Source of the DNA: an uncultured Oscillospiraceae bacterium
Lineage (GTDB): Bacteria; Bacillota; Clostridia; Christensenellales; CAG-314
Direction: 5' to 3'
NCBI GenBank assembly: GCA_964474475.1
Contig: CAYYTD010000001.1
Location: forward strand, 1-33,428
Length of the DNA: 33,428 nucleotides
Below, piece by piece: positions 2,081-24,437 of the stretch (position 1 is its first letter; each line of letters starts with the position of its first letter). The notes beneath the pieces were generated by a model. It worked only from the letters and a program-made list of their open reading frames with translations, ran no database searches and had not been told where the DNA came from. Made by a program: the position numbers and the translations under genes.

Positions 2081-2101
2081 AATTAAATAGGAGTAGAAAA
2101 A

Positions 2102-3463: not shown

Positions 3464-3486
3464 CACCATTAACGGAGGAAACGAAA

Positions 3487-4392: not shown

Positions 4393-4405
4393 GGAGGAGC
4401 ACGAC

Positions 4406-5326: not shown

Positions 5327-5329
5327 TTC

Positions 5330-6790: not shown

Positions 6791-6825
6791 GCTGACTTAT
6801 TGAAATCAAGAAAGAGGTGAAAAAC

Positions 6826-8118: not shown

Positions 8119-8173
8119 TTTCTTGTGCAAAGTTTAGTCAAGCAAAAAACTGTTTTTTTGGGAGGCGTTGCCA

Positions 8174-9376: not shown

Positions 9377-9433
9377 GTATTAACTTGCGGTAGACCGCAT
9401 TAATAAATAAAAACAAAAAAAGGAGAAGTAAAG

Positions 9434-12400
9434 ATGAAAAGGATTTTAACCTTGGTTTTGGTTCTTGCGGTAATGCTTGGCGTTGTTGCAGCCTGCACGC
9501 CCGATCCGGAACCGGATCCTCAACCTACTATGCTCACCGTCACAAGCGCGGCAGAGGTTAGTTTGGAACTAGGTCAAAGCTATATGCTTGCTTACGATAC
9601 GGACGGCACCGTACAAGTTAGCGTTAGCGGTGGTAGTTACGATGCAGAATCGCAAAAGTTTACTGCAACGGAAGCCGGGACCTACACGATCACTCTTACT
9701 GCAACCGCACAGGGCAAAAAGGAAACTGTTGCCACTGTAAAAGTTACATTCACGGTTGCAAGCGCCAACAAAACGGCGCTCGGCACAGCTATCGAAAGTG
9801 CCGGTGCTCTCGTTAAAACGGACTACACGAGTAGCTCGTGGAGCGCTCTTCAAACTGCACTCGACACGGCAAAAGCCGCACTCAATCAATCGGGCATTTC
9901 TCAAGCAGACGTTGACGCCGCAACCGCAGGCGTTACGAGTGCAATTTCCAACCTCGTGTCCAGCCTTGTCAAGGCCGAAATTGGCGCCGACAACAAGTCA
10001 TTCACCTGGATGGAAACTACCTATGCCGAAGCAGATTACGACAACTTTGCCGATATCGTGGCAGAAATTAGCGCGTTAAACGCCAATGCGGAAATGACTG
10101 TCAAGTCCAAGTACAACCCCGCAATCTCCGCCATTCTCGACAAACTCGTTGCAAAGCTTAAGCTTGCCATCAAGAGCGAACTCAAGAACAACGCAACGAT
10201 GATCGTTGAATCTCTCGTTGAATACACTCTCACAGCCGAATCGGAAGACGGCGCAACTTATTCTTGGAAGGTTGACGGCAAAGAAGTTGCAACTACCGCA
10301 ACGCTTGCGTTTACTCCTACGGAATTCAAACGCTACGAAATCGAATGCACGGCAACCAAGGGTAAGAGCTCCAACGTTAAAACACACACCGTTGCATTCG
10401 TAAAGGCCGATTACGTAGTTAACGGAAGATTTACGGACAGCATCTCCGTTGCAAACAACGTTATTAGCGTAACCGGAGACCTTGGCTGGGGCGACGAAGA
10501 AGGCAAAAAGGTTACTCTTCCCGATCTTAGACTTTCCGGTAACTTTACGGTTTACTTCGACGTAACCTTCACCAAGACGGCAGATCCTGCCGTTATGGCA
10601 CTCTTCCTCCTCAAGGACAACGGCGAACGCAACGATTTCTGGGTGGCAGTACTTCAACACAACAACAGACTTGAAGTTGCAACCAGAGGCGACAGCGACG
10701 ATTTCAAGCCTCGTTACGAAATGCCCGCCGGAACGGCAACTCTCGACAAGGTTATCCACGTAATGATGACTCGTACCATCAAGGACGGCAAAGCATATCT
10801 CTACGCTTACATACTTGACGACGATGGCAAAGTCATCATGACTCACGATGCAAACGGTCTTTACAAGGACGACGCTGATTCTCTCGGCACCGTACAACTC
10901 GGTATCCAAGCAGAACACGCTCACTTTACCGTTTCCAACCTTGCAGTTGGCATCAACGACAATCTCGTCAATCGCAAACCCGTCAACGAAAGTATTGCAA
11001 AACTTTCCGGCTACGTAGAATCCGACTACACGACGGAAAGCTGGGGCAAGATTACCGCAGCAAAGACACAAGCTGAATCTGCGGCAACTCAAGAACAAGT
11101 TAATGCTGCTGCAGCAGCCATCGACAAAGCCATTGCCGAACTCGTACCCGCAACGTTCGAAAAAGCCGAAGTATCCGCAACCGGAATTACTTACGCAGGC
11201 AGAACGTACGGAGCAGACGATTACACCAACTACGAAACGGTACTTGCACAAGTCAACGAACTTGCAAAACTCACCCTTCGTTCCAAGTATAATCCGGAAA
11301 TCGTCAAGGTTCTTGCAACTCTCCAACTCAAACTCAACTTCAGCGTAAGCGGTATTGCAGACGGTACCAACCTTATTGTTAAGGCTCTTACCGAGTACAC
11401 CCTTACTGCTTCCAGCGAAACGGAAGGCGTAACTTACGCTTGGTCGGTTAACGGCACAGCTAAGGGCACTGGCGAAGAATTTAAGTTCACTCCCGAATCA
11501 TTCGGCAAAGTGGAAATTACCTGCCAAGCCAGCACGGCTAGCGGAGCAGTGGCAAGCCGCGTTATTTCCGTTTCCTTCATCGAATCGGACGTTAAGACTC
11601 CTATCGGCGACAAAGTAACCATTGGCGACGACGGTTCCTTCACGACGCAAACCGGCATCGAATGGCCCTACTGGGAAGGCAGAAACGTTCTTTACGACGA
11701 TCTTATTTTCAACGGTTCCTTCTCCATCACGATGGACCTTACCTACAACGGAACGAGCGACGGAGCCACCGTTGCAACCATTCACCTTCTCAATGCAGAT
11801 ACGCTTAGCCCAAGCTGGGGCGGCGACTGGGCATACGTAGGATACGGCTGCATCTGCCTCCACGAAAATCCCGTCAGGTTAGAAACCTGCTGGTCAGGCA
11901 CCGGCAAAAAGCAATCTAGCGACGGCGGATTCGATTCCATCGCTACGGCAATGAGCGGAGTAGCAGACTTGCTTGAACAAGGCGACACCTTTACCGTAAA
12001 ACTTACTTGCTACCGCAACGCAGAAAAACAACTTCAACTCGTTTACTCACTTTTGAACACCAAGAATGGTGAATGGATTGAATTCAACCGCAACGAATGG
12101 GCCGGAGACATGGGCGGCGGCTTCATCGTAGGTATCAACGTTGAACATATCGGTCTTACAGCCAAAAACGTTCGTTACGAACTTCTTGACGCAACGGGCA
12201 GCTACTTGGCAGGTTCCGTCAAGTCCAGAGCAGTTCTTTCCGCAACACTCGTCAAGTATCAAGACGTAGTTGCTTCCGAATACGTAAACGGCGCAGCATT
12301 CACCGCAGCTTACAAAGCAGCATGGGCTCTTATGAGCAACAACAGCGCAATTGTCGACTACGATGCAGCAGCACAAGCTCTTGAAACGGCAGCAAAAGCT

Positions 12401-13204
12401 CTCGTTCCTAGAACCGTAGCCGTCTCCGCAGGAGCGCTTGACAAGGGATATGCAAACTACGTAGGCGTAACCGAGTTTGAAGCCAAGTTTGCCGAAGGCG
12501 TAACCGCAACGGACGTAAAATGGACCTACAAACTTAATGGCGAAGCAGGCGAAAAGGTCGGCGCAAAACTCGCTCTTGAAAACGGTGCTTACACCGAAGT
12601 TAAATTGTCCTTTACGGTTGGTGGCGAAACTTACACCTATCAATATCAAGACTTTAAGGTTTCGGCTCTCTCACTCAAGTCCTACACGGAAAAAGTTACC
12701 GTAACGGGCAGTACCGTTAGCGTTGACGACGGCGCAGGTTGGGGACAAAAGGATCAACTTGTAATCGAAAACGTACGCGCTCAAGAATTTGAACTCGTGT
12801 TCAACGCAGAGTACAAAGGAACGCCCGGCGGCGGATACCGCGTAATGTGCATCAACCTCTTTGGTGAAGCGATCAGACCGGTATTCGGTTATCAAAGAGA
12901 AGACCGTGCCGACAGAGCACAAATCGGTTTCGACAACAATGGTGAATGGACAGACATCAACAAGGCCGATGCGGAAGCAGATTACAACCACATCTTTGGA
13001 GAAGCAACCAAGTTCAGCCTCAAGCTTTCACAAGACGGCGAAGGCAAGTTCTGGATCACCTTCACGGTTTACCGTGCAGACGGCAGTGTTATTGCCCAAA
13101 AGACTTGCGACCACGCTGCATGGTACAGCTCCACTACGGAACTTCGTTTCACCTTCGAAAACATCGACCTCACTCTTGGCGGTTTTGAGGTTTACTACAA
13201 CTAA
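9434..13204 (+). CDS. Large surface lipoprotein (1256 aa): N-terminal Ig-like domain plus three tandem modules of FIVAR-like helical segment, Ig-like domain and jelly-roll/LamG-like beta-sandwich
   Basis: Lipobox GVVAAC-TPD. FIVAR-like segments include DYTSSSWSALQTALDTAKAALNQSGISQADVDAATAGVTSAISNLV and DYTTESWGKITAAKTQAESAATQEQVNAAAAAIDKAIAELV. Ig-like repeats: ATYSWKVDGKEVATTATLAFTPTEFKRYEIECTA vs VTYAWSVNGTAKGTGEEFKFTPESFGKVEITCQA vs VKWTYKLNGEAGEKVGAKLAL. Each is followed by a roughly 170-aa beta-rich block. Confidence 0.8.
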   Translation: MKRILTLVLVLAVMLGVVAACTPDPEPDPQPTMLTVTSAAEVSLELGQSYMLAYDTDGTVQVSVSGGSYDAESQKFTATEAGTYTITLTATAQGKKETVATVKVTFTVASANKTALGTAIESAGALVKTDYTSSSWSALQTALDTAKAALNQSGISQADVDAATAGVTSAISNLVSSLVKAEIGADNKSFTWMETTYAEADYDNFADIVAEISALNANAEMTVKSKYNPAISAILDKLVAKLKLAIKSELKNNATMIVESLVEYTLTAESEDGATYSWKVDGKEVATTATLAFTPTEFKRYEIECTATKGKSSNVKTHTVAFVKADYVVNGRFTDSISVANNVISVTGDLGWGDEEGKKVTLPDLRLSGNFTVYFDVTFTKTADPAVMALFLLKDNGERNDFWVAVLQHNNRLEVATRGDSDDFKPRYEMPAGTATLDKVIHVMMTRTIKDGKAYLYAYILDDDGKVIMTHDANGLYKDDADSLGTVQLGIQAEHAHFTVSNLAVGINDNLVNRKPVNESIAKLSGYVESDYTTESWGKITAAKTQAESAATQEQVNAAAAAIDKAIAELVPATFEKAEVSATGITYAGRTYGADDYTNYETVLAQVNELAKLTLRSKYNPEIVKVLATLQLKLNFSVSGIADGTNLIVKALTEYTLTASSETEGVTYAWSVNGTAKGTGEEFKFTPESFGKVEITCQASTASGAVASRVISVSFIESDVKTPIGDKVTIGDDGSFTTQTGIEWPYWEGRNVLYDDLIFNGSFSITMDLTYNGTSDGATVATIHLLNADTLSPSWGGDWAYVGYGCICLHENPVRLETCWSGTGKKQSSDGGFDSIATAMSGVADLLEQGDTFTVKLTCYRNAEKQLQLVYSLLNTKNGEWIEFNRNEWAGDMGGGFIVGINVEHIGLTAKNVRYELLDATGSYLAGSVKSRAVLSATLVKYQDVVASEYVNGAAFTAAYKAAWALMSNNSAIVDYDAAAQALETAAKALVPRTVAVSAGALDKGYANYVGVTEFEAKFAEGVTATDVKWTYKLNGEAGEKVGAKLALENGAYTEVKLSFTVGGETYTYQYQDFKVSALSLKSYTEKVTVTGSTVSVDDGAGWGQKDQLVIENVRAQEFELVFNAEYKGTPGGGYRVMCINLFGEAIRPVFGYQREDRADRAQIGFDNNGEWTDINKADAEADYNHIFGEATKFSLKLSQDGEGKFWITFTVYRADGSVIAQKTCDHAAWYSSTTELRFTFENIDLTLGGFEVYYN

Positions 13205-13242
13205 TTTTTGTAGTATCAAATAACGTTAGTTATTAAAATCAG

Positions 13243-13306
13243 GTTTTCCACTCACGAGGGGCGCCTTTTACAAGGCGTCCCCAAAGTGGAAACTAAATAG
13301 TTTTTT
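13243..13306 (+). terminator. Two-tier GC-rich hairpin followed by a T-run (terminator-like, possibly leaky)
   Basis: Outer stem GTTT(T)CCACT 13243-13252 pairs with AGTGGAAAC 13285-13293. Inner stem GGGGCGCC 13258-13265 pairs with GGCG(T)CCCC 13274-13282. TTTTTT at 13301-13306 is 8 nt from the stem, so this is not a textbook intrinsic terminator. Confidence 0.4.
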
Positions 13307-13320
13307 ACAAAGAGGTTGAC

Positions 13321-14238
13321 GTGAAATTCATGAAACCCCTCATGATTGCCTTTGCAATCATACTTTTGCCTTTGTTCGTGCTGTCCACCATGCAGCTGTT
13401 TGGCTGGACGTGGCCTACGGAATTTGCAGGCGCCAACGTAGTAATGACGGTGGTTTTGGCTGTTTTTACTGCGTTACTGGTAATTTCTGCTTTCGGGCAG
13501 AAGTTTAGAATACAAAAAATAGGCACTTATCTTCTCCACGCGGGATTCGTTTTGTTCCTTGCGGGGAGTTTGCTCTACGTAACTACGGGTACTTCTCTCA
13601 CAGTAGCCGTGCCTGTGGATAACACTAAGGCTTACAGCTATTTGGAAGATAGCAACGGCAACGTGGTAGAGCTTGGCTTTGCCTTTGGTCTTGACCAATT
13701 CAAGATTACTTATTACGACCCTGTTTACGACGTTTACCAAGTGGACGGGGAAAACACCAAGACGGTAATGACCGACGTGCAAGTGCAAAAGTCGGCAACC
13801 GGCGAATGGTACTATGATTTTGACAAATACGGCGCAATAACTCTCAACGAGTTACTTGACGGCGAAAGTATAGATACGATAAAACAAACGGTCACTTTAG
13901 GCGACGGAGTGGTTGCTTCCGTTAGGTTGTTAGTCAAGGAATACGTTGCCAACGTTACTTTTATTGACGAAAACGGCGGCGAAACGAGCCAAGAACTGTT
14001 GGTTAACCACACGTTGTACAAAAACGGATTCAAAATTTACCTCATGGGGTACGACGAAGTATCTTCGCGCGTTACCTTAATGTTCAAGAAGAATATCGGC
14101 GAACCTTTGTCTACGGCAGGGCTGATCGTCGTAATGGCAGGCACCCTCTTCCAATGCATCGTGTATCCTTTAATTGTTAACAGGAAAAGCAAAAATGCCT
14201 TGCCCGCATCCGAAAAGGACGAGGAGGGCAAGATATGA
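13321..14238 (+). CDS. ccsB: Compact ResB/CcsB (Ccs1)-like cytochrome c biogenesis protein (System II)
   Basis: 305 aa. N-terminal TM helices include a His-containing helix (IGTYLLHAGFVLFLAGSLL), then an extracytoplasmic domain, then VNHTLYKNGFKIYLMGYD (compare the ResB consensus VNHPL..G...YQ.sY) and a C-terminal TM. The stop overlaps the ccsA start (ATGA at 14235-14238). GTG start 5 nt after AGAGG. Confidence 0.65.
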   Translation: MKFMKPLMIAFAIILLPLFVLSTMQLFGWTWPTEFAGANVVMTVVLAVFTALLVISAFGQKFRIQKIGTYLLHAGFVLFLAGSLLYVTTGTSLTVAVPVDNTKAYSYLEDSNGNVVELGFAFGLDQFKITYYDPVYDVYQVDGENTKTVMTDVQVQKSATGEWYYDFDKYGAITLNELLDGESIDTIKQTVTLGDGVVASVRLLVKEYVANVTFIDENGGETSQELLVNHTLYKNGFKIYLMGYDEVSSRVTLMFKKNIGEPLSTAGLIVVMAGTLFQCIVYPLIVNRKSKNALPASEKDEEGKI

Positions 14239-14993
14239 GTTGGTTGAAAATAGTAATGGTTGCCTCGGCACTGTTCCTTTTTGCGGCAACTGCGTTGTTC
14301 GTTAAGAAACGCACCTACGCCAAGTACGTGGCGGCAATCGGCTTTGTTTTGAACGGAGTAGTCGTTGCGGTAAACTGGATTTCTAACGGCTATGTTCCCT
14401 TCATCAGCATGTATCAAGTGCTGGCGTTCGTGGGTGTTTGTTTCCCCCTTGCGTATTTGCTAATTCACTTCGTGCGCGAAACCAAAGTGAATTTTGCTTG
14501 GTTTACCCTTTGCGCAGGCGTGTGCATGGTCGGTTCGGCAGCGATGTTCAGCACCATGATTTGGCATCGGGCACCCGCCTTGCAGTCACCTTTCTTTATT
14601 CCTCACATACTTTGTTACATTTTGTCCTACTCTTTGTGCGCCGTCGCTTTCGTGCAGACGATAGTGATGATGTTCCAAAAGAAAGAGGAAGACAAGGCAG
14701 AAACGGAAAAATCCATCTACGCCATAGTGATAACGGCATTTCCATTTATGGTAATGGGTATGTTTCTCGGCGCCATTTGGGCAAACGAATGCTGGGGCAA
14801 TTACTGGTCGTGGGATCCCAAAGAAAACTGGGCGCTCATCACCACTTGCTTGTACGCATTCTATTTCCACGTAAGAAAACGCAAATTTTTCAAAAAATGG
14901 CTTGTTCCCGTTTTAATAATCGCTTTCGTAAGCCTAATTATTACATTTATCGGTGTCAATGCGGTAGAAGGCGCATTGCACTCCTATTCATGA
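14235..14993 (+). CDS. ccsA: Cytochrome c assembly protein CcsA/ResC (haem-handling, System II)
   Basis: Polytopic membrane protein with the tryptophan-rich WWD motif WANECWGNYWSWDPKENWALIT (nt 14778-14831). Flanking conserved-looking histidines occur in FFIPHILCY and FYFHVRK. Confidence 0.85.
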   Translation: MSWLKIVMVASALFLFAATALFVKKRTYAKYVAAIGFVLNGVVVAVNWISNGYVPFISMYQVLAFVGVCFPLAYLLIHFVRETKVNFAWFTLCAGVCMVGSAAMFSTMIWHRAPALQSPFFIPHILCYILSYSLCAVAFVQTIVMMFQKKEEDKAETEKSIYAIVITAFPFMVMGMFLGAIWANECWGNYWSWDPKENWALITTCLYAFYFHVRKRKFFKKWLVPVLIIAFVSLIITFIGVNAVEGALHSYS

Positions 14994-15012
14994 ATATTTA
15001 ATGGAGGTATTT

Positions 15013-17259
15013 ATGGAAAAGAAACTTATCAAAAAGCTCCTAATAGGCACCTGTTGCCTGCTGTTTGTTCTTGCTTGCGGTTTTGCACTAACCGCTTGCG
15101 ACAAAGAGGAGCTCAACTTTGAGTCGGTTAGTGTGTATCACACGGCCGAACAGTACGTTTCTCCGTCGGGCATTGCTCGCAAGGGAGAGTCGACTTTCGT
15201 TTCCGATGCTACGCTCAACAAGGTTTACAAGCTCAACGAAGAGGGCACCGTTCTTAGGTCCTATTCGTTTGACCAAACGGTCAACTCCGTTTACGTAAAC
15301 GGCGACAACGTTTACGCGCTTGTAGGCGAACTTGCAGGGGAAATTTACCGCTTCGACGGATCCCTTAATCTCCTGTCTAAGGCAGAAGTAGAGCACACCC
15401 CAACGGATGCACTCGTCCTTGACGGCAAGATTTACGTGGTGAACAGATTTTCGGCGTCGATATCTATTCTTTCCGAAGACTTGACAACTAACGTAGAAAA
15501 GATTGACCTATCCGACGGCAGAGAGCCCATGGCAATTGCAACGGCACAAAACAAAATATTCGTTGCTTGTCATCTTCCTAGCGGCAAAGCTACCGACGCA
15601 ACCGTATCTGCCGATTTGTTCGTGATCAATCCCGAAACGGCAAAGGTTACCAAGAAAATAGAGTTGCTCAACGGAACGGGCGGACTCAAAGACATGGCAG
15701 TATCGTCCGACGGCAAATACGTTTACACAACCAATTTGTTCGCAAGATACGCCTACCCCACGTCGCAACTCGATCGCGGATGGATTAACACCAACGGCAT
15801 TACCGTGGTGGATGCCACAGCCGAAGAGGTGTACGCAGGAGTGTTGCTCGACAGCGTTGAACGCGGAGCATCCAACCCGTGGGGAATTGACGTAATAGGC
15901 GAAGGCAAAAATGCCAAAGTCGTTTGCGCCATCAGCGGTCTTGGCGAAATCTCCGTCATCGACGAATCGGCAATGTTTGCCAAGCTGCAACGCGTAGAAA
16001 AGGGCGAGTTTGACTACGGCTTGGATGCAGTAGTGGATCGCGTTGAATTTTCTTCGGATATCAGCCAGCGCATTTCCGTTGGCGGCAACGGACTTAGAGA
16101 AGTTTTGCTTGCCGACGAATACGGAACGGAATATGCCTACCTTACCCAGTATTTTGACGGAACTATTACCAAAATCGCTCTCGAAACGGACGAAGTAGGT
16201 GAGCGCGAAAAGGCCGTTTACATGATCGGTTCGCAAGGAACCCCCACTAAGGAAAGAATAGGCGAAATTCTTTGGTACGACGGCAATTACTGTTATCAAG
16301 CGTGGGAGTCCTGTGCAAGCTGCCACCCCGATGCAAGAGCCGACGGATTAAACTGGGATAACCTCAACGACGGTCTTGGCAACCCCAAGCAGGCAAAGTC
16401 GATGATGTATTCACATCGTACCCCTCCCGAAATGGTCACCGGCGCGCGTGAAACTGCCGAGCTTGCCGTGCGCAAGGGAATGCAGTTCATTCAGTTCAAC
16501 ACCATGGAAGAAGAGCTTCTTGAGTGCATCGACGATTATCTCAAGTCGCTTGCGCCCACGCAAAGTCCTTACCTCAACAGAGATGGCACGCTTACTGCCT
16601 CGGCAGAGCGCGGCAAGGAATTGTTCAGTCAGTTCAATTGCGCATCTTGCCACACCGGTCCATATTACACCGACCTTCAAATGCATCAATCCTCCTCTCT
16701 CGACCTTGACGACACGTGGGAAGACAGAGCTTTCGACACACCCACTCTCGTTGAAATTTGGAGAACGGCACCATACGTATTCAACGGAAGTTGTGCAACG
16801 ATGGAAGATGCTGTAAGGTATTTCGTAGAAAAATCCGGCAAAACCATTACCGACGAACAAGTAACGGACCTTGCTAACTACATACTTTCCATCGGCGACG
16901 AAGGGGAATATTACGGCGTTCAACAGGTATTTTTCGATAGAAACGACGACTCCGGCGAACTTGCCGTTCAATTGCTCGTTCCGGGAAGAACCATGAACAA
17001 GGTGACGATACGCAAGCAGCATGATACCGACAAGAATGCGTACGTTTGCATCAAGCTTTACGATGCAAGCGGCAAGCAAATCGGTGAAAGCGTCAACGCC
17101 GTTCTCACGGGAATGGTAAAGGGCGATTACGCCATGTTTGAGTGCGATCTCGATGTGCCTGCGGATCTTGCCAAAGGAAGTTATTACGAAATTACAATCG
17201 TAAATGCAGACGACACGGGTGAAGCGTTAGCAACGCCGCTCCGCGTGTATTATAATTAA
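15013..17259 (+). CDS. Lipoprotein: N-terminal YVTN/lactonase-type beta-propeller fused to a di-haem cytochrome c peroxidase/MauG-family domain
   Basis: Lipobox GFALTAC-DK. Propeller-like repeats include KIYVVNRFSASISIL, KIFVACHLPS and DGKYVYTTNLF. Two CXXCH motifs: WESCASCHPDARADG (nt 16312-16326) and FNCASCHTGPYYTD (nt 16639-16653). CCP signature: AFDTPTLVEIWRTAPYVFNGSCATMEDAV. ATG 15013 is 5 nt after GGAGG; the ORF track gives 15001. Confidence 0.8.
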   Translation: MEKKLIKKLLIGTCCLLFVLACGFALTACDKEELNFESVSVYHTAEQYVSPSGIARKGESTFVSDATLNKVYKLNEEGTVLRSYSFDQTVNSVYVNGDNVYALVGELAGEIYRFDGSLNLLSKAEVEHTPTDALVLDGKIYVVNRFSASISILSEDLTTNVEKIDLSDGREPMAIATAQNKIFVACHLPSGKATDATVSADLFVINPETAKVTKKIELLNGTGGLKDMAVSSDGKYVYTTNLFARYAYPTSQLDRGWINTNGITVVDATAEEVYAGVLLDSVERGASNPWGIDVIGEGKNAKVVCAISGLGEISVIDESAMFAKLQRVEKGEFDYGLDAVVDRVEFSSDISQRISVGGNGLREVLLADEYGTEYAYLTQYFDGTITKIALETDEVGEREKAVYMIGSQGTPTKERIGEILWYDGNYCYQAWESCASCHPDARADGLNWDNLNDGLGNPKQAKSMMYSHRTPPEMVTGARETAELAVRKGMQFIQFNTMEEELLECIDDYLKSLAPTQSPYLNRDGTLTASAERGKELFSQFNCASCHTGPYYTDLQMHQSSSLDLDDTWEDRAFDTPTLVEIWRTAPYVFNGSCATMEDAVRYFVEKSGKTITDEQVTDLANYILSIGDEGEYYGVQQVFFDRNDDSGELAVQLLVPGRTMNKVTIRKQHDTDKNAYVCIKLYDASGKQIGESVNAVLTGMVKGDYAMFECDLDVPADLAKGSYYEITIVNADDTGEALATPLRVYYN

Positions 17260-17271
17260 GGAGGGCAAAAT

Positions 17272-20200
17272 ATGAAGGATATGAAAAAACGTACCGTAGC
17301 GGTTATCGCTTTTGCAACTTTATTGATTATTTGCCTTACGTTTGTGGGTTGCAACGACAACGGCCCCGTTAAGGGATACGAACCGTCTACGTTAACCAAC
17401 AACACGACGACCATCAAGACTACCTCTGCCGAGCAAACGCAGTACTATGGTTCTCTTGAAAACGTAATCGAAGGATATGCCTCCGAGTACGTAATTACGC
17501 GTCACAAACCAATGGCAGGTACCTTTTACGCCTACACCGAAGGCATCACCGACGACCTTGCCGGACTTCACGGCGGCGAAGGCAACGAAGCCGTCTTTTG
17601 GCCGGGCTCTCAACTGCTCAAGTTGAAGCTGTCTTATGACCTTGACGGAAATCTTCAAAAGGAAGAAGAACTGCTGGTAGATTCTCCCAACGGAGTAGTG
17701 CGCGATCCGGACGTTTCCGCCGATGGCAAAAGAGTGGTGTTCAGCTGGAAACAAAACAAACAAGACGACTACCACCTTTACATTTACTTTTTAGAAACGG
17801 GCCTTGTTGAGCAAATCACCTTTGGTCAAGGCATCAGTGATACCGAACCCAAGTGGTTGCCCAACGGTCAAATAGTCTTTTCCTCGTCCAGAACGGTACA
17901 AATAGTAGACTGCTGGAAAACCCCCGTATCCAACCTGTATATTTGCAATGCAGACGGTTCGGAAATGATCCGCGTAGGATACGACCAAGTTCACACAACC
18001 TACCCCACCGTTACGGAAGATGGCAGAGTGCTTTACACTCGTTGGGACTACAACGACAGAACGCAAATGTTCGTTCAAGCGCTTTTCTCAATGAATGCCG
18101 ACGGCACCGGACAAACGGCAGTATTCGGAAACAACAGTAACAACCCTACTACGGTAATGCACACCGTTGCCGTTCCCGGTTCGTCCAGTAAGTACCTTAC
18201 CATCGTTTCCGGTCACCACGTAACACAAGGCGGCAAACTTGCCGTTATCGATACCGCAATCGATCGTGACGGACAATCTCCCCTCGATTACGTATTCGAA
18301 GCTGCCGAATCGGGCGAAAGTATCGACACTCTCGGTCAAGCAGGCAGAATTTACAAGTACCCCATTGCAATTAACGAAAATGAAATGATTTTCGCCAGAG
18401 CGGAGTCTTGGGCAAGTGCCAAGCAAGAAACCAAGTTCAGCTTGTATTATTACAATTCCGAAACGGGCGAAATGATTTGCATTGCCGATTGTAACGGTGG
18501 CAAAATTTCCTGTTCGCAAATTGCACCCATTCGCACCAAACGCACATTCGTTCGCCCCAGCATGGTCGATTACTCCAAGGATACCGGCACCTATTACGTT
18601 GCAAACGTTTACGAAGGCGACACCATGAAGGAAGTTGAATTCGGTGCAGTCAAGTATCTCCGCGTAGTTGCGTTGGATTACAGACCTTACGCCGTTGGTG
18701 CGGTTTCGGCAGGAAACAGCTCGGCTTATCCCGACGGTTTTGGTACTTCCGACCCGTCAACACCCGTAGGAACGGCAAACTCCACGTGGGACGTAAAGAA
18801 GGTTATCGGCATCGTGCCTGTCGAAGAAGACGGCTCCGTAATGTTCAGTTGCCCGTCGGACGTTCCCGTGTACTTCCAGCTCCTAGATGAAAACGGATTG
18901 ATGATTCAGTCCATGAGAAGTTGGTCCACCCTCATGCCGGGCGAAACTTTCTCCTGCGTGGGATGTCACGAAAGCAAAAACAACGTTCCCGTTAGCGGCA
19001 GCATGGTTACGATGGCAATGAAGAAGGGCGTCCAAAAGCTTCAAAAAGACATTTGGATGACCACTGAAGAGTACGAAAATTACGATCCTTACACCGATTA
19101 CAAAGGATTTAGCTACGCCGACGAAATTCAGCCCATTCTTGACAGAAGTTGTGTGTCGTGTCATACTAACGTAGAATTGGCAAATAAGCGTCTTGGCAGC
19201 CAAGGCATTTCGGTAGATATAGGCAAAACGGTTACTTCTTCCACGTGGAAGTATCTTGTAACTACAAAGAGTAACGACGTTTCTTGGACGAGTTCCGCCT
19301 TCAATCCCGATTGGTCAACGGCAACGCAACCCTTTGGTAGCGATTCAGGCAGTTCCATCACGTGGGGTGCAAGTTCCGATGCTTGCTTCTACATGACGCA
19401 ACAATTTACCCTCACGGCTGACCAGCTCAAAGGCAAGTTCTTTATCAAGTGGCAGTACGACGAAGATCCTCAACTCTATCTCAACGGTACGAGAATCGAT
19501 TCCGTTCCTGTCAACGGCACCTACATTACAGGCACAACCTATTTTGAACTTTCCGCATCGCAAAAAGCACTTCTCAACGAAGGTACCAACACGATTACCG
19601 CGCGTGCTTACAACGCTATGGGCGGTTCGTATATGTACGTAGAGTTAACCTGCAACACTGAGGTTGCTTCCACAACCACAAGCCCTGTTGCACTTACGGA
19701 CGAAATTAGGGTAGCAAGCCGCGACAAGGTAGATTACTATCTGTCCTACCTCGTGCTTACAGGTTCTTTCCTCAAGGGTAACTTCTATTGCGGGACTCCC
19801 ACTAACGACATCACCGATTGGATCGGCGGCATGAGCGATCCTACGACCATTCCTGCGTATACTCATGGTTCAACCCAAAGCGGAATCATCGAAATGCTCA
19901 TGAACGACCATCAAGGACTTCTTTCTTCGGGCAAGATCAGCAAGGAAGACATCTACCGCATTGCAGCATGGATCGATCTCGGCGTTCCTTACAGAGGAAG
20001 CTACAACGAAGCTTCGGAAAACTGGGGTTCGTTGGAAATGGGTGAAGCCGAAAGACGCCAAAACATGCGCGACTATTACAACAAGATCGACGAGTTGAAC
20101 AAGGCAAAAAAAGCAGGCCAACTCAGCAGAAAAAAGGTGCTCATCGAGTACTTTGATGCAAGTGGCAACTATATCGGCGCAGTAGAAGATAGACACCTTT

Positions 20201-20949
20201 CCATTCTCTATCTCGATCAAAAAATTCAAGCGGGCGACACCGTCGTCGTAACCCTTCCCAGTGGCTACGAATACGTGTGGTTTAGCCTCAGTCCCAAAAT
20301 GAAGCTGGCACTCATGTACTGTCCGGACGGCGTGTTCACTTACACGGTTCCCCAGTATGCCGAAAATATCTTCCCCAACCTTACCGTAGGAAAGGATCAA
20401 TACGTTTACACCCATCCCACGATTACCGCCTTCCTTCCTAGCGAAGAAGACTTGAATGCAATTTACAACGTAGCACTCAATCCGTACGACGCAGGCTACA
20501 AAAACGAAGGAGCCAAGATAACCACAGGCAGCGCTTGGGAAAACGACGGTTACGGCAACTTCTTCCCTGCAAACGCATTTGACGGATTCACCTGCAACCG
20601 CGGCCACGGTGTATTCCCCAACCAAAGCTGGGGACCGGACAAGAACGTAGGCAATGAAGATAGATGGCTGCAAATCGACTTCGGTAGAGAAGTAGAGCTT
20701 TACTCCTTTGAAATGTTCATTCGTGCAGACTTCCCGCACGATGCTTACATCACCAAGCTGGAACTTGAATTTTCCGACGGGACGATAATAGAGTGGACTG
20801 ACCTCAAGCAAACGAATCAAGGTCAAATCCTCGTCCTCGAAGAAGCCATCAAAACTACTTTCGTAAAGATTAAAAATATCGAAACTTCCAAGGACGATTG
20901 GTTCGGAATTTCCGAGTTTATGGCTTACGGCAAAAACGTTATCAAGTAA
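17272..20949 (+). CDS. Lipoprotein (1225 aa): PD40/TolB-like beta-propeller, HzsA-like di-haem c module, galactose-binding-like beta-sandwich and C-terminal F5/8 type C (discoidin)-like domain
   Basis: Lipobox LTFVGC-NDN. PD40-like repeats: DVSADGKRVVFSW, PKWLPNGQIVFSSSR, PTVTEDGRVLYTRWDY. CXXCH motifs: PGETFSCVGCHESKN (nt 18955-18969) and DRSCVSCHTN (nt 19150-19164). Beta-sandwich pattern: FFIKWQYDEDPQLYLNGTRI. Discoidin-like: NEDRWLQIDFGREVELYSFEMFIRADF. RBS AAGGAGGG. Confidence 0.75.
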   Translation: MKDMKKRTVAVIAFATLLIICLTFVGCNDNGPVKGYEPSTLTNNTTTIKTTSAEQTQYYGSLENVIEGYASEYVITRHKPMAGTFYAYTEGITDDLAGLHGGEGNEAVFWPGSQLLKLKLSYDLDGNLQKEEELLVDSPNGVVRDPDVSADGKRVVFSWKQNKQDDYHLYIYFLETGLVEQITFGQGISDTEPKWLPNGQIVFSSSRTVQIVDCWKTPVSNLYICNADGSEMIRVGYDQVHTTYPTVTEDGRVLYTRWDYNDRTQMFVQALFSMNADGTGQTAVFGNNSNNPTTVMHTVAVPGSSSKYLTIVSGHHVTQGGKLAVIDTAIDRDGQSPLDYVFEAAESGESIDTLGQAGRIYKYPIAINENEMIFARAESWASAKQETKFSLYYYNSETGEMICIADCNGGKISCSQIAPIRTKRTFVRPSMVDYSKDTGTYYVANVYEGDTMKEVEFGAVKYLRVVALDYRPYAVGAVSAGNSSAYPDGFGTSDPSTPVGTANSTWDVKKVIGIVPVEEDGSVMFSCPSDVPVYFQLLDENGLMIQSMRSWSTLMPGETFSCVGCHESKNNVPVSGSMVTMAMKKGVQKLQKDIWMTTEEYENYDPYTDYKGFSYADEIQPILDRSCVSCHTNVELANKRLGSQGISVDIGKTVTSSTWKYLVTTKSNDVSWTSSAFNPDWSTATQPFGSDSGSSITWGASSDACFYMTQQFTLTADQLKGKFFIKWQYDEDPQLYLNGTRIDSVPVNGTYITGTTYFELSASQKALLNEGTNTITARAYNAMGGSYMYVELTCNTEVASTTTSPVALTDEIRVASRDKVDYYLSYLVLTGSFLKGNFYCGTPTNDITDWIGGMSDPTTIPAYTHGSTQSGIIEMLMNDHQGLLSSGKISKEDIYRIAAWIDLGVPYRGSYNEASENWGSLEMGEAERRQNMRDYYNKIDELNKAKKAGQLSRKKVLIEYFDASGNYIGAVEDRHLSILYLDQKIQAGDTVVVTLPSGYEYVWFSLSPKMKLALMYCPDGVFTYTVPQYAENIFPNLTVGKDQYVYTHPTITAFLPSEEDLNAIYNVALNPYDAGYKNEGAKITTGSAWENDGYGNFFPANAFDGFTCNRGHGVFPNQSWGPDKNVGNEDRWLQIDFGREVELYSFEMFIRADFPHDAYITKLELEFSDGTIIEWTDLKQTNQGQILVLEEAIKTTFVKIKNIETSKDDWFGISEFMAYGKNVIK

Positions 20950-20970
20950 TATTAGGGAGGAAACAAAAAC

Positions 20971-22659
20971 ATGAAGAAAACACTCGCTTTAATTCTTTTG
21001 TCGGTGTTGGCGTTAACGTTGGTTGCTTTTGCAGCTTGTGAAAAGGAACCGCCCGCACCCGTAAAGCCCACCGTGGGCACAGTAAGTGGCGTTGTAACCG
21101 ATTCTGCCGGCGATCCGCTTGAAGAAGCAGAAGTTTACTATTCCGAAGATTCTTCCGTTGAAACAAACGAGAACGGCAAATTCAGCATCAAAAACGTAAC
21201 CGTTGGCGATCTTACTTTGAAGGTAACACTCAAAGGCTACGCCACGAAAACGGTCAACGTAAACTACGACAGTTTCGACGACGAAGGCAACTGCAACTTG
21301 ACCATCGCCCTGGAAGATGGCGTAGGCACCATTAAGGGTACCGTCAGCGTAGACGGACTTACTTCCAAAAAGCTCCAAGGCGTTACCGTCTCTCTCGGTA
21401 GTTCGCAAGTGACGACGGACAAGGACGGCAAGTACGAAATTACCAACGTTTCCATGCACGGAACCAAAACCCTTACGGCAGTCGTCGACGGCTACGGTCA
21501 GTCGCGCAAAACCGTAACCGTTCGTTCCTTCGACGTAAACGGCGTTGCAACGGTCAACTTCCAACTCGTTCAAAACGACCTTGCCGAGTTGCCGGGCATC
21601 AAACCCAGCCAGCTTGAAGCGCTCGAAATTATTCCCGCAAGCAAAACGCAACTCAGCCTTTCCGACCTGAAAAATCTCAATCGCAGCCCGGACGGACTTG
21701 CAGGCACTTCCAAGGTTGAAGATCACGGCGAAGGTCTTTGCGTTAATGCCGATACCAAGAGTGACAATTCCAATATGGTTGCCTTCATTTACGGCAAAAT
21801 TAAAATTGACGACAACCACAAGTTCCTTACCTCTTACGTAAGAATTTTCTTCGGACAAAACGGCGGCAAGGATCACGATGCAGAAGCCGCAGGCGACTTT
21901 TCAACTGCAAAGCTTGCCGAGCTTGGCGTGTACATCATCAACGAACAAGGTGAAGTCGTCACAGACGTTGCTACCTTCCAAAAGGTAACCACCGAAGGTT
22001 TCATGCCCGTAACGTTCGATCTTTCCGCTTTTAGCGGACAAACGGTAACCTTCATTCTCGGCACCAAGACGGGATATCACTGCTGCTTTGACAGAGTAGA
22101 ATTTGCTGCCGCAGCTCCCAGATATCTTACCGTTAGCGGAGTGGACGGACTTACCAGCATTATGCTTCACAGCAAAGTGACGGATACTTCCTTCGATGCT
22201 GCAGCGCTCAAAGAAAAATGGGCTATCAGCGGTGGCGTAGGCATGGTGAGTGAAGGCATACAACTTAACGGCGCCGATCCTTGGAAGGCTGAAGATTTCG
22301 ATGCAGCCAATCCTCAGCCTGTAAACTCCTATATGTACTTAACTACGGATATTACCGCACAAAACAGTCAAATGTCAATTGCGGCAACCATCGTTAACCT
22401 TAAAGAGTGCACAGACCCCGCTTCTGCCGATCCCAACCATCACTTCTTCCCGTGGGTTTCCGTAATAGTGCTTGACAGTAACGGCAATGTTCTCAAGCAA
22501 ACGGACTGGACCAAGGTTGAAGTTGCCGAAAACAACGCCGAGTTCAATTTGGATTGCGATCTTTCCTCTTGCGTAGGGCAAGACGTCACCGTCGTTATTG
22601 CCTGCAATGTAGGTTATCGTGCAACCATCACGGGCGTAACTTTTGACGCAGCACAGTAA
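20971..22659 (+). CDS. Lipoprotein with two carboxypeptidase-regulatory-like (CarboxypepD_reg) domains and two related C-terminal beta-sandwich modules
   Basis: Lipobox LVAFAAC-EKE. CarboxypepD_reg-like segments: GTVSGVVTDSAGDPLEEAEVYYSEDSSVETNENGKFSIKNVTVGDLTLKVTLKGY and GTIKGTVSVDG...VTTDKDGKYEITNVSMHGTKTLTAVVDGY. C-terminal duplication: VTFDLSAFSGQTVTFILGTKTGYHCCFDRVEF vs FNLDCDLSSCVGQDVTVVIACNVGYRATITGVTF. Confidence 0.7.
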   Translation: MKKTLALILLSVLALTLVAFAACEKEPPAPVKPTVGTVSGVVTDSAGDPLEEAEVYYSEDSSVETNENGKFSIKNVTVGDLTLKVTLKGYATKTVNVNYDSFDDEGNCNLTIALEDGVGTIKGTVSVDGLTSKKLQGVTVSLGSSQVTTDKDGKYEITNVSMHGTKTLTAVVDGYGQSRKTVTVRSFDVNGVATVNFQLVQNDLAELPGIKPSQLEALEIIPASKTQLSLSDLKNLNRSPDGLAGTSKVEDHGEGLCVNADTKSDNSNMVAFIYGKIKIDDNHKFLTSYVRIFFGQNGGKDHDAEAAGDFSTAKLAELGVYIINEQGEVVTDVATFQKVTTEGFMPVTFDLSAFSGQTVTFILGTKTGYHCCFDRVEFAAAAPRYLTVSGVDGLTSIMLHSKVTDTSFDAAALKEKWAISGGVGMVSEGIQLNGADPWKAEDFDAANPQPVNSYMYLTTDITAQNSQMSIAATIVNLKECTDPASADPNHHFFPWVSVIVLDSNGNVLKQTDWTKVEVAENNAEFNLDCDLSSCVGQDVTVVIACNVGYRATITGVTFDAAQ

Positions 22660-22676
22660 ACTTTATAACACAAACG

Positions 22677-22712
22677 GGTAAATGCGGCGCAATTGCCGCA
22701 TTTACCTTTAAA
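22677..22712 (+). terminator. Hairpin terminator candidate after the lipoprotein operon
   Basis: 12-bp perfect stem GGTAAATGCGGC (22677-22688) pairing with GCCGCATTTACC (22695-22706), 6-nt loop, followed by TTTAAACTTT (a weak T tract). Confidence 0.5.
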
Positions 22713-22726
22713 CTTTCAAGGAACAC

Positions 22727-23617
22727 ATGAAACCATCACAAAAAAGCAAACCGTTTGATAGAAAAGACGTATTTTTCCGCACGTTTAAGGAGCATTACGG
22801 CGTTTTGCTCGGCGTAAGCTTGGCAATGTTTGTATTTGCTCTGCCCGTAGTTGCGGTTTATTTCGGCGCGTATATCGAGTTGTCTCTTTTGGGAGAAATC
22901 ACGTTGGAAAACGCAGTGGAAATGTATTCCATACAAACGCAAATGTATATTTGGCTCATTCCTGCCTTTGCCATTTTTTCGGTGGGCGCAGCGGGTGCGT
23001 TTTACGTCATTCGCCGGCTGGTTTGGGATCAGCCAGTTTTGTTCTTTAGGGATTTCTTCCGCGGAATAAAGGCAAATTGGTTACAAAGCTTAATTAGCGG
23101 AGTAATTTTCATTCTTTTTATGGGAGCGCTCAATTACGCAATGAACATGCTCGTCCTCAACGTAGAGTTGGGCTCCGCCTATTGGACGTTGTACGTGGTG
23201 CAAATATTCTTGGCGGTAGTTGCGGCAATGCTGTTGCTGTTTCAGTATGCCGCCATCGCCGTTTACAACGACAACGTATTCAAAATTATCAAGAACAGCT
23301 TTGCTTTCCTTTGGGCGACCTTCCCCCGAAGCATCGGCATCGTACTGTTGGCATTTGCGCCCGTATTTGTTTTGCTTGCTTTTGCTAGTGTGTACATCAT
23401 CTACATCATCGTGTTGATATTCCTTGCGCTGGTGGGCTTTGCTTACGGCATACTCGTCTTCACCCTTCACGCGCATTACGTGTTCGACAAGTACGTCAAC
23501 AAGCAGTCTTTCCCCGACGTGTACAAAAAGGGGCTTTACCACGAAGGAACGACGGTCGGTAGCGAAACGGAATCTTCCGTCCCCGCCACCGAGGGCTACA
23601 ACATCGACGTTGAATAG
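22727..23617 (+). CDS. YesL/DUF624-family integral membrane protein
   Basis: About 6 TM segments. The N-terminal FFRTFKEHYGVLLGVSL and FFRDFFRGIKANW motifs are typical of DUF624 proteins, which accompany Gram-positive sugar ABC loci. The RBS is weak. Confidence 0.7.
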   Translation: MKPSQKSKPFDRKDVFFRTFKEHYGVLLGVSLAMFVFALPVVAVYFGAYIELSLLGEITLENAVEMYSIQTQMYIWLIPAFAIFSVGAAGAFYVIRRLVWDQPVLFFRDFFRGIKANWLQSLISGVIFILFMGALNYAMNMLVLNVELGSAYWTLYVVQIFLAVVAAMLLLFQYAAIAVYNDNVFKIIKNSFAFLWATFPRSIGIVLLAFAPVFVLLAFASVYIIYIIVLIFLALVGFAYGILVFTLHAHYVFDKYVNKQSFPDVYKKGLYHEGTTVGSETESSVPATEGYNIDVE

Positions 23618-23659: not shown

Positions 23660-23732
23660 AAAAAAGGCGCTCGGCGAAGTTTTTCGTCGGGCGTCTTTTT
23701 CGTGATTTGTTAATTATTATTGCAATTCGTTG
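23660..23732. repeat. 73-bp direct repeat, copy 1 (contains a terminator)
   Basis: Matches 25151-25223 at a constant offset of 1491 bp, with one mismatch seen (23709 G vs 25200 A). Looser similarity extends a few nt upstream (CAATAA...). Confidence 0.85.
23666..23700 (+). terminator. Rho-independent terminator (A-tract upstream and T-tract downstream, so possibly bidirectional)
   Basis: 13-bp stem GGCGCTCGGCGAA / TTCGTCGGGCGTC (three G-U pairs), loop GTTT, then TTTTT (23696-23700). Preceded by A7 (23659-23665). Confidence 0.7.
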
Positions 23733-23976: not shown

Positions 23977-24330
23977 GTGGACAATCACGAAAGGGTACGC
24001 GAGCTTACGGATAGGTTTTCCGCTTGTTCCAAAGTGCTTATTGCCATAGGGGACGAAACGAGACAGCGACTGATACTGGAAATGATGAAAATTGGCAAGT
24101 GCAACGGCGTTCGCGTGGGCGAAATAACACAAAAGACGAATTTGTCGCGCCCTGCAGTGTCCCATCATTTGCAAATAATGAAGGATGCCGGCATCGTCAA
24201 AGTGCGCAAGGAAGGCACCAAGAATTACTATTATTTCGATTCGGAAATGGAGTGCTTCGAGCAGTTAATTTCCACATTGCGTTTTGCCATGGAAATATCT
24301 GCCGATTTGCCCGATAGGCGCGGAGAATAA
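23977..24330 (+). CDS. ArsR/SmtB-family winged-helix transcriptional regulator
   Basis: 117 aa. Sequence LIAIGDETRQRLILEMMK...VGEITQKTNLSRPAVSHHLQIMKDAGIVKVRKEGTKNYYYF. GTG start 9 nt after AAGGAGG. Confidence 0.85.
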   Translation: MDNHERVRELTDRFSACSKVLIAIGDETRQRLILEMMKIGKCNGVRVGEITQKTNLSRPAVSHHLQIMKDAGIVKVRKEGTKNYYYFDSEMECFEQLISTLRFAMEISADLPDRRGE

Positions 24331-24437
24331 CGGGCATTTGCGCAAGACAACTCAAGTGGGCAAAGTGCCTATTTTGATGGCAAATAAAGATAATTAACCG
24401 TTAAGCGGTGCAATTTTACTAAAACGGAGGTAAAAAA

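Follow-up and report, generated by a model that had tools for sequence, protein, structure and literature searches.

A putatively mobile four-gene cassette of uncultured gut Clostridia that encodes a divergent cytochrome c synthase and predicted surface haem lipoproteins of the hydrazine synthase-like superfamily

The DNA considered here, termed the window, is 33,428 nucleotides in length and represents an entire contig (CAYYTD010000001.1; C1) of a metagenome-assembled genome (MAG) from an uncultured Oscillospiraceae bacterium (GCA_964474475.1; 1.35 Mb in 179 contigs, 47% GC, completeness 84%, contamination 0.5%). Of four adjacent genes at nt 13321–20949, two encode lipoproteins, termed P3 and P4, that belong to a superfamily resembling hydrazine synthase (HZS) of anammox bacteria, outside HZS proper, and the other two, resB and ccsA, specify a divergent System II cytochrome c synthase. 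On balance it is probable, with appreciable room for doubt, that the four genes constitute a self-contained mobile module that makes a four-haem, HZS-like complex at the cell surface; that this complex carries out peroxide or oxygen chemistry is a guess. An initial annotation read these genes as a private cytochrome c maturation system with two haem lipoproteins placed within an alpha-mannan utilization locus. It overlooked the identity of the two lipoproteins, which are related to the HZS beta-gamma and alpha subunits.

Profile matches and predicted folds together identify P3 and P4 as homologues of the HZS beta-gamma and alpha subunits, respectively. P3 (15001–17259, + strand; the family-conserved Met5 at nt 15013 is the probable true start) is a fused beta-gamma homologue and consists of a seven-bladed propeller (aa ~40–410), a di-haem domain of the cytochrome c peroxidase (CCP)/MauG type (~417–632) and a C-terminal beta-sandwich (~638–750). 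NCBIfam searches return hydrazine_BC (1.1e-18), gamma (1.1e-15) and beta (6.4e-11) models. The best PDB sequence matches are the gamma chain 5c2v_C (3.6e-13, aa 419–554) and the beta chain 5c2v_B (2.4e-9, aa 221–393), and with a profile of the P3 family these reach 8.2e-25 and 1.1e-23, whereas the best CCP gets to 2.2e-14. PDB entry 5c2v is the anammox HZS of Kuenenia stuttgartiensis; a fused beta-gamma form occurs in Scalindua. An AlphaFold (AF2) model of P3 has a pLDDT of 81, and its propeller superimposes on 5c2v_B with a Z of 38.5 over 329 of 352 residues, compared with 30.8 for the runner-up PDB propeller. In Pfam, P3 matches Cytochrom_C (PF00034) at 38.8 bits (cut-off 21.3); CCP_MauG (PF03150) is passed by the whole protein (27.4 vs 25.6 bits), but by no single stretch of it. 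The C-terminal half of P3 resembles the CCP/MauG/MbnH superfamily in having two haems, and solved CCPs are matched at 1e-5 to 2e-14 and the MbnH and MauG models weakly. It differs from CCP/MauG proteins in carrying a fused propeller and in matching HZS gamma far better than any CCP.

The two P3 haem motifs are both CASCH and lie 109 residues apart. One (16312–16326, + strand; aa 438–442) corresponds to the HZS haem gamma-I and the other (16639–16653, + strand; aa 547–551) to haem gamma-II; C438, C441 and H442, as well as C547, C550 and H551, are invariant among 27 homologues, and His562 is conserved in at least 90% of these.

P4 (17272–20949, + strand) is the alpha homologue. It has a TolB-like propeller (aa ~50–425), an HZS_alpha middle domain (458–567), a C-terminal haem domain split by a jelly-roll insertion (~aa 655–815), a helical linker, a beta-sandwich and a carbohydrate-binding module of family 32 (CBM32). 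P4 matches HZS_alpha (PF18582) at 113.6 bits (cut-off 26.6) and also PD40; the alpha model NF052339 is matched at 2.3e-17, and the best PDB sequence match is 5c2v_A (3.3e-10; 5.6e-14 with the family profile). The AlphaFold (AF2) model (pLDDT 79) gives the same picture: Foldseek places 5c2v_A at 1.3e-21 with TolB next at 8e-10, and VIA-align against 5c2v_D gives a Z of 29.5 with 578 of 770 residues aligned (model residues 43–893). It should be pointed out that in a first wide VIA-align search with the P4 model 5c2v_A was outside the top 50, in a list crowded by single-domain propellers.

The first P4 haem motif, CVGCH (18955–18969, + strand; aa 562–566), corresponds to HZS haem alpha-I and is followed by ESKN. 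In all homologues with an open reading frame (ORF) that extends this far the motif reads CVGCH or CIGCH, and the Asn four residues past the motif His is invariant in the family. The second, CVSCH (19150–19164, + strand; aa 627–631), corresponds to haem alpha-II, and an invariant His880 (H855 in the model numbering) follows downstream, where it would fall at the position of the HZS distal ligand His772. His562 of P3 and His880 of P4 are therefore candidate distal ligands of bis-His relay haems. The positions that the initial annotation gave for the four CXXCH motifs are exact, and homologues keep all four with little or no variation. With the Cys and His frequencies of the genome, chance alone would give 0.008 CXXCH motifs in 752 aa and 0.013 in 1225 aa, and by this estimate the four motifs are far beyond chance.

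The F5/8 type C (CBM32-like) domain of P4 (aa 1093–1215; 20548–20916, + strand) scores 42.4 bits with PF00754 (cut-off 28.2), and its predicted fold superimposes on the NanJ CBM32 (2v72, a galactose complex) with a Z of 16.1, 132 of 137 residues aligned and an rmsd of 2.1. P3, P4 and P5, the last being the lipoprotein encoded immediately downstream of P4, all have lipoboxes. A prediction of a complex between P3 aa 405–640 and P4 model residues 400–895 scored 0.18 where the mark is 0.32, and speaks neither for nor against binding.

The likeness of the pair to anammox HZS is extensive. The same three structural parts are present, the gene order is beta-gamma then alpha, the four CXXCH motifs are at equivalent positions, and P4 has the six-bladed TolB-like propeller and the middle and C-terminal haem domains of HZS alpha. 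Yet identity is only 16–20%, and the NCBIfam HZS models NF052339, NF052341 and NF052342 give 62.2, 57.5 and 66.8 bits vs cut-offs of 800, 625 and 1250, respectively. HMMER alignments pair the third haem-linking residue of HZS gamma, gamma-Cys165, with a Val in P3, and across the segment with the distal gamma-His144 both P3 and the family profile show a gap of 10 residues. P4 has no Tyr591-type axial ligand after the alpha-I motif, which in HZS goes with a His587/Cys303 zinc site; ESKN is found there instead, and unlike HZS alpha it adds the jelly-roll insertion, the beta-sandwich and the CBM32. P3 and P4 are lipoproteins from a Gram-positive bacterium, not anammoxosome proteins. They do not form a hydrazine synthase, as the residues specific to HZS are lacking. 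Multihaem proteins of the hydrazine dehydrogenase (HDH) or hydroxylamine oxidoreductase (HAO) type were also not found in a census of CXXCH motifs that covered all ORFs of at least 80 aa in the 84%-complete genome.

To our knowledge, hydrazine synthase was long viewed as an enzyme without relatives. Hagglund et al. (December 2025; PMC12758564) describe co-localized alpha and fused beta-gamma HZS homologues outside the anammox bacteria, in which key residues are missing and whose function is unknown. Their homologues fall into clades I–IV from Planctomycetota, Desulfobacterota and a few other taxa, with Bacteroidota and ‘Bacillus’ in the beta-gamma tree; alpha is mostly upstream, the neighbours are FG-GAP/CRTAC1 or substrate-binding protein (SBP) genes, and clade I has extra haem motifs (PMC12758564). 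The P3 and P4 genes are like these pairs in being adjacent (12-nt gap) and in the absence of the HZS key residues. They differ in gene order, beta-gamma coming before alpha, in that the module includes resB-ccsA, and in having hosts otherwise devoid of cytochromes c. Clostridia, adjacent ccsBA, lipoproteins, fusions to CBM or dockerin domains, and glycan loci are without mention in that work (PMC12758564). A literature search, incomplete in its coverage, yielded no paper that connects proteins like HZS, or c-type cytochromes, with glycan loci of Clostridia, with cellulosomes or with mannan polysaccharide utilization loci (PULs). A Clostridial, self-maturing and glycan-targeted HZS-like form appears to be undescribed.

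The two genes upstream of P3 encode the putative synthase. resB (13321–14238, + strand) specifies a short ResB/CcsB-like System II subunit of 305 aa with about four transmembrane helices and a transmembrane His73 that is kept in 32 of 32 homologues. It matches PF05140 at 59.9 bits (cut-off 24.6) and has no NCBIfam match. ccsA (14235–14993, + strand) encodes a CcsA/ResC-like subunit of 252 aa that scores 116.6 bits with Cytochrom_C_asm (PF01578; cut-off 29.9). Its WWD motif (aa 182–196) and histidines are strictly conserved: all 55 homologues share W182, W187, W191, D194, K196, His124, His212 and His249. By its profile scores CcsA is a divergent member of its family. The two reading frames overlap via ATGA, and the following gaps are 7 nt between ccsA and P3 (19 nt from Met5), 12 nt between P3 and P4 and 21 nt between P4 and P5; overlap, coordinates and gaps were given exactly in the initial annotation, as judged by the ORF map. 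The pair is like System II (CcsBA/ResBC) in the CcsA WWD motif and histidines, the ResB transmembrane histidine, the overlapping genes and the exported CXXCH apocytochromes as clients. It is unlike the usual System II in the small size of both proteins and in that the synthase is dedicated to two adjacent clients. Every profile that had been singled out for this locus, i.e. ResB, Cytochrom_C_asm, CCP_MauG (by the whole-protein score), HZS_alpha, PD40, F5_F8_type_C and CarboxypepD_reg, is matched above its cut-off.

A genome census bears out the notion of a private maturation system. The sole Cytochrom_C_asm (PF01578) and the sole Cytochrom_C (PF00034) matches in the 84%-complete source genome are those of this locus, and five other genomes with the cassette (1.8–3.1 Mb) have one Cytochrom_C match each, which is their own beta-gamma homologue. 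On these domain counts the maturation system is private to P3 and P4. A 1308-aa ORF on contig C8 (C8:23–3946) is the only other ORF in the genome with two CXXCH strings. It was rejected as a third cytochrome, as the strings are incidental, lie in Cys repeats, and no cytochrome domain is present. This protein is a lipoprotein with Big_3 and has at least six C-x9-10-C-x2-C-[H/G/L] repeats, each preceded by an H-x-F/Y-G motif; the repeats have no Pfam family.

The enzymes of haem synthesis looked for were not found: ALAD, Porphobil_deam (HemC) and Ferrochelatase in the 84%-complete source genome, and ALAD in the five other cassette genomes (G001–G005). Cassette carriers therefore probably scavenge haem, and the makers of cytochrome c here appear to be haem auxotrophs.

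Relatives of P3 occur in 324 species-representative genomes, and locus comparisons drew on the best 80 of these 324. About 69 of the best 80 come from MAGs of uncultured Clostridia sampled in rumen and hindgut; the remainder are from Planctomycetota, Verrucomicrobiota, Omnitrophota and one Labilibaculum, at 35–40% identity (37–40% to P3 for the Planctomycetota and Verrucomicrobiota relatives). The cassette of four genes is shared by about 60 species, all of them uncultured Clostridia from gut and rumen. In about 63 Clostridia loci beta-gamma is followed by alpha in nearly all, with resB-ccsA immediately upstream in most and downstream in few. Variant orders are seen in locus L062 (2084–7790), which has an alpha fragment, beta-gamma, resB, ccsA and alpha, and in L039 and L045, where resB-ccsA is downstream of alpha. 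This branch of the family, in uncultured Clostridia of gut and rumen, comprises about 2,900 alpha-like cluster representatives. One alpha-like protein (P0176, 1976 aa) is fused to an FGE-sulfatase (formylglycine-generating enzyme-like) domain and Cytochrome_CBB3, and Bacteroides thetaiotaomicron, used in a control panel, has a match to HZS_alpha (PF18582) above the cut-off and is a genetically tractable gut carrier of a relative, on which the family could be studied.

The C-terminal ends of the alpha-like proteins point to the glycan or cell surface. Among 43 Clostridial alpha-like proteins, the tails carry F5_F8_type_C in 24, DUF7402 in 20, Dockerin_1 (type I) in nine and FIVAR in three. The neighbouring genes are varied. 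When three ORFs on either side were tallied for 57 Clostridia loci outside the mannan clade described below, the commonest neighbour was an AraC-type regulator (15 upstream, four downstream), followed by ArsR/MarR types; the AraC-type neighbours carry cupin sensor domains. Genes for carbohydrate-active enzymes (CAZymes; GH2, GH38, GH127 and GxGYxYP) and for cohesin are found two or three times each, and no quinol dehydrogenase or other electron-input gene recurs in these flanks. Because the neighbours are heterogeneous outside the mannan clade, the cassette is, as far as gene context can tell, an autonomous module, usually with its own regulator.

In the window, the cassette lies within an island of alpha-mannan genes. 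GH76, a giant lipoprotein, P5 and a MusI-like gene flank the cassette only in the closest clade, loci L001 and L013–L018 (P3 identity 63–83%). In the distant metagenomic locus L005 (46% identity), the cassette is followed by an SBP gene, two permease genes and GH125. The island proteins of L015–L018 are 63–88% identical to those of the window, and GH125 67–81%; in four of five other island genomes GH125 is on the same contig 15–17 kb upstream of beta-gamma. Housekeeping proteins tell a different story. Only G070 (L014) belongs to the window's genus, with GluRS, Jag and YidC 85%, 65% and 53% identical to those of the window (same-genus genomes have 81–87% for GluRS). The others are distant: the same three proteins are 36%, 35% and 34% identical in G071 (L015), 39%, 46% and 37% in G073 (L018), 36%, 34% and 32% in G001 (L016), and 39%, 37% and 28% in G072 (L017). 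Since island proteins are 63–88% identical vs 28–46% for housekeeping proteins, the comparison indicates that the whole mannan island, with the cassette, moved between distant Clostridia as a unit. HZS_alpha is found in none of 36 other species of the window's genus, and the possibility that the cassette is ancestral to the genus was rejected on this basis. GH125 is present in only two of 40 within the genus, in a different 808-aa form at 43% identity.

The claim that the cassette is embedded in a GH125/GH76 island and inherited or transferred with it thus holds, and transfer as a unit is the strongest argument for joint use of the cassette and the mannan genes in this clade, hitch-hiking being the alternative. 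The module of this lineage probably works alongside foraging on mannan or the fungal cell wall. The view that the cassette is a specific mannan accessory does not hold, given the heterogeneous neighbours in about 57 other Clostridia loci and its absence from 36 sister species. Two signs of possible decay were seen in sister islands, either of which may be an assembly error: the GH125 frame of G071 (L095, C5:34671–35924) has two in-frame TGA codons, and beta-gamma in L018 (9968–12461) is split into two overlapping ORFs.

A mechanism can be proposed. P3 and P4 would be exported by Sec and lipidated, after which ResB/CcsA would move haem, probably obtained by scavenging, across the membrane and attach it to the four motifs. 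The two proteins would then assemble as a four-haem HZS-like complex at the external face of the membrane, tethered to glycan by the CBM32, or by dockerin, DUF7402 or FIVAR in relatives. The gamma-II-like and alpha-II-like haems, each with a conserved candidate second His, may relay electrons, and the other two haems would be the reaction sites for a small diffusible substrate. The catalytic haems of HZS are buried and linked by a small-molecule tunnel (PMC12758564), which is the reason to expect a small-molecule substrate here. The chemistry may be self-contained, CCP/MauG-type and driven by peroxide or oxygen, with electrons from ambient reductants or from the substrate. Such chemistry is favoured because no electron-input gene accompanies the cassette and the hosts are without respiratory cytochromes; a peroxide or oxygen reaction of this type at a glycan-binding site is nonetheless a guess.

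Several observations weigh against parts of this proposal. As regards haem attachment, ResB is smaller than usual and aligns to just the central part of the Pfam profile (positions 142–278 of 486), CcsA scores 144.6 bits against TIGR03144, under the equivalog cut-off of 187.6, and no CcdA/DsbD partner (PF02683) was found in the 84%-complete genome, ResA-type thioredoxins not being part of the search. The source genome is a fragmentary MAG, which leaves it unproven that haem synthesis, CcdA or other cytochromes are missing. In P3, model confidence in the di-haem domain is low at aa 452–483 (pLDDT <50). The inter-haem Trp and distal Gln/Glu residues of CCPs, and a second haem with His/Met or His/Tyr ligands, for which this is the relevant segment, are not identifiable, and the structural relatives of the domain are unrankable as propeller matches crowd every list. 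Peroxide or oxygen chemistry is conjectural, and carriers come from habitats of strict anaerobes. As regards the mannan connection, outside the mannan clade the cassette is mostly without CAZyme neighbours, and the Gram-negative relatives adjoin genes of the RidA/L-PSP family (five members, 11 loci) and have no adjacent resB-ccsA; the mannan link may therefore be circumstantial. The Gram-negative loci (L080–L092) also have FGE-sulfatase, arylsulfotransferase and FeoA/B genes.

Transcription signals add a further point against the link. A GC-rich hairpin (13242–13294, + strand), with a T-run about 10 nt after it, is within the 116-nt gap 5′ of resB. It has a dG of -35.6 kcal/mol (z -5.3 vs shuffles) and no Rfam match. 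Its position before resB is kept in all sister loci (L001, L014–L018), while the sequence differs; it is possibly a partial terminator, an attenuator or a processing site. The conservation of hairpins on both sides of the resB to P5 genes suggests that these are under separate transcriptional control. The reading of the locus as one operon thus fares unevenly: short gaps on one strand are in its favour, but the conserved hairpin splits the cassette from the mannan genes, and the two may therefore be transcribed apart. Promoter and terminator consensus scans (16 vs 19.4 and 26 vs 26.5 sites in shuffled sequence) were uninformative as to a promoter before resB.

The initial annotation raised the idea of a haem c-dependent redox step tied to mannan. 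A link to glycan is plausible in view of the CBM32 and dockerin tails, which typify polysaccharide-active enzymes, but a direct attack on the polymer, in which the haem proteins oxidize alpha-mannan, mannoprotein or the fungal cell wall and so aid GH76 and GH125 in the manner of lytic polysaccharide monooxygenases or RoxA, is unlikely. The cassette does share its strand with the mannan genes on one side and the MusI-like gene on the other, with short gaps between, the whole island is kept and transferred as a unit, the distant L005 again has SBP, permease and GH125 genes downstream, and genes for GH38 alpha-mannosidases are found downstream in two other loci. These observations have to be set against the buried, tunnel-linked catalytic haems of the nearest solved relative, the many cassette loci, indeed most, that have no mannan genes, and the conserved hairpin upstream. 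The suggested likeness to RoxA fails as well, since PF21419 reaches only 20.2 bits, under the cut-off of 26.7. Furthermore, the ligands known for CBM32 domains are of the galactose type rather than mannose, and 2v72 is itself a galactose complex. Mannan context could also be incidental. The P3 di-haem domain is in the CCP/MauG superfamily (CCPs matched at 2e-14 to 1e-5), the hosts are gut anaerobes, dockerin forms would sit on cellulosome-like assemblies, and the cassette, equipped with a regulator of its own, turns up in many contexts unrelated to one another; all of this would fit a CCP-like surface peroxidase or oxidase that purely protects, removing H2O2 or O2 with ambient reductants. A simple peroxidase, however, needs no two-haem alpha subunit, two propellers and a CBM; the catalytic residues of CCPs are not identifiable, an electron donor protein is not encoded nearby, and AraC-type regulators with cupin sensors dominate the neighbours, with no OxyR/PerR type among the common ones. 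Pure protection is accordingly unlikely, with some chance of being right.

That HZS chains are the nearest solved relatives for all three parts, and that both candidate electron-relay haems seem to be kept, raises the question of whether the nitrogen chemistry of the HZS lineage has persisted, as reduction of NO or nitrite to hydroxylamine or ammonia, or as oxidation of an amine such as an amino sugar at the second haem site. RidA/L-PSP genes, of an imine deaminase family, hint at imine or amine chemistry in the Gram-negative relatives, but RidA is not among the common neighbours in Clostridia. The replacement of gamma-Cys165 by Val, the deletion of the gamma-His144 segment, the lack of a Tyr after the alpha-I motif and the absence of HAO/HDH-type multihaem proteins from the CXXCH census all argue against it, and targeting by CBM or dockerin domains would have no obvious role; nitrogen-oxide or hydroxylamine chemistry is quite improbable. 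Extracellular electron transfer, with the four haems as a conduit to humics, Fe(III), flavins or partner cells, is very unlikely indeed. Surface-anchored c-type cytochromes carry out such transfer in some Gram-positives, e.g. Thermincola, FeoB is found twice in downstream flanks, and a dockerin and a c-type cytochrome are reportedly mentioned together in a study of ANME archaea. Here, however, two large proteins that resemble enzymes share just four haems, propellers with a tunnel are what an enzyme would have, and neither a membrane quinol dehydrogenase nor a cytochrome b or multihaem wire is found in or near the cassette.

The small-molecule haem enzyme proposed above has a bolder version: that the cassette represents a new class of glycan-targeted haem c enzymes of anaerobic gut Firmicutes, an HZS-derived four-haem complex, docked in some hosts to cellulosome-like scaffolds, whose redox step the cell requires when it forages on complex glycans such as fungal mannoprotein. 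Its makers would be bacteria devoid of respiratory cytochromes that have to scavenge haem in order to build it. This is a long way from probable, but if true, no cytochrome c-dependent auxiliary activity would have been seen before in the anaerobic degradation of polysaccharides, and it would give the hydrazine synthase architecture a second, non-anammox function. Whatever the chemistry, the locus reveals a large branch of the HZS family in uncultured gut and rumen Clostridia that has its own haem-attachment machinery, and lipoprotein anchoring together with CBM or dockerin fusion gives the family a concrete glycan and cell-surface context. It bears on how anaerobes might apply redox chemistry in polysaccharide foraging. 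Fermentative, apparently haem-auxotrophic anaerobes invest in c-type cytochromes, which bears on the haem economy of the gut. The mobile mannan island, in addition, offers a natural system for presence/absence comparison.

The remainder of the island consists largely of the alpha-mannan gene block (812–13204, + strand), assigned with Pfam and by the N-termini. It is preceded by the C-terminus of a LacI-type repressor (Peripla_BP_3; 17–643, + strand) that is truncated by the contig end. The block begins with GH125 (812–2080; 486 bits in Pfam), followed by a sugar SBP gene (2102–3463) and two ABC permease genes (3487–5326), all on the + strand and assigned by Pfam. A secreted protein of 486 aa (5330–6790, + strand) has no family and only a weak LGFP match; it is 81–88% identical in sister islands, where it is also between the permeases and GH76. 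There are two GH76 genes on the + strand, which score 84.9 and 101.9 bits in Pfam. The product of one (6817–8118) is a lipoprotein. The other (8168–9376) has a TTG start and, unlike the first, no signal peptide or lipobox, and its product may be cytoplasmic or the start mis-set. The block ends with the giant lipoprotein, which has PKD/FIVAR domains (9434–13204, + strand; Pfam). Thus, the upstream LacI, GH125, importer, GH76 and giant lipoprotein genes are borne out by Pfam, and this upstream gene order is the same in L001 and L014–L018.

In gene content the window contains a Gram-positive alpha-mannan locus, as GH76 and GH125 share a strand with genes for a LacI-type regulator and a sugar ABC importer. 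It is like the MAN-PULs of Bacteroides thetaiotaomicron (PMC4978465) and the Salegentibacter locus (PMC9213526), in which GH76 (endo-mannanase) and GH125 (exo-mannosidase) are found with an importer and a regulator, but unlike the MAN-PULs it has the Gram-positive ABC-importer form. No mannan locus with cytochrome c genes was found in the literature search, in keeping with the initial annotation, which knew of no described locus with such genes. Rfam and tRNA scans of the window were both empty.

Downstream of the cassette, P5 (20971–22659, + strand) is a lipoprotein with a lipobox, two CarboxypepD_reg domains (77 bits, cut-off 32.3) and an uncharacterized C-terminal half; it has no CXXCH. P5 is restricted to the mannan-island clade, where it follows alpha only in L001, L013, L015, L016 and L018, and its neighbours in a protein atlas are uncharacterized CarboxypepD_reg lipoproteins. 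Between P5 and the next gene is a perfect 13-bp palindromic hairpin (22676–22706, no strand assigned; dG -24.7 kcal/mol). The last gene of the island (22727–23617, + strand) encodes a polytopic membrane protein weakly related to MusI (YesL-like) proteins, which are accessory to sugar ABC importers. It had been described as YesL-type, of which there remains a weak MusI-family match (NF052431, E 5.7e-7, 29.6 bits, under the cut-off of 160) and no Pfam match; the gene is kept after P5 in L013, L015, L016 and L018. A strong intrinsic terminator-like hairpin of 18 pairs with a T tail (23661–23700, + strand) marks the island end. Just past it, at 23977–25094, are genes for an ArsR-family regulator and a TM1586-type nitroreductase; ArsR-like regulators are the second commonest neighbour of the cassette at other loci too.

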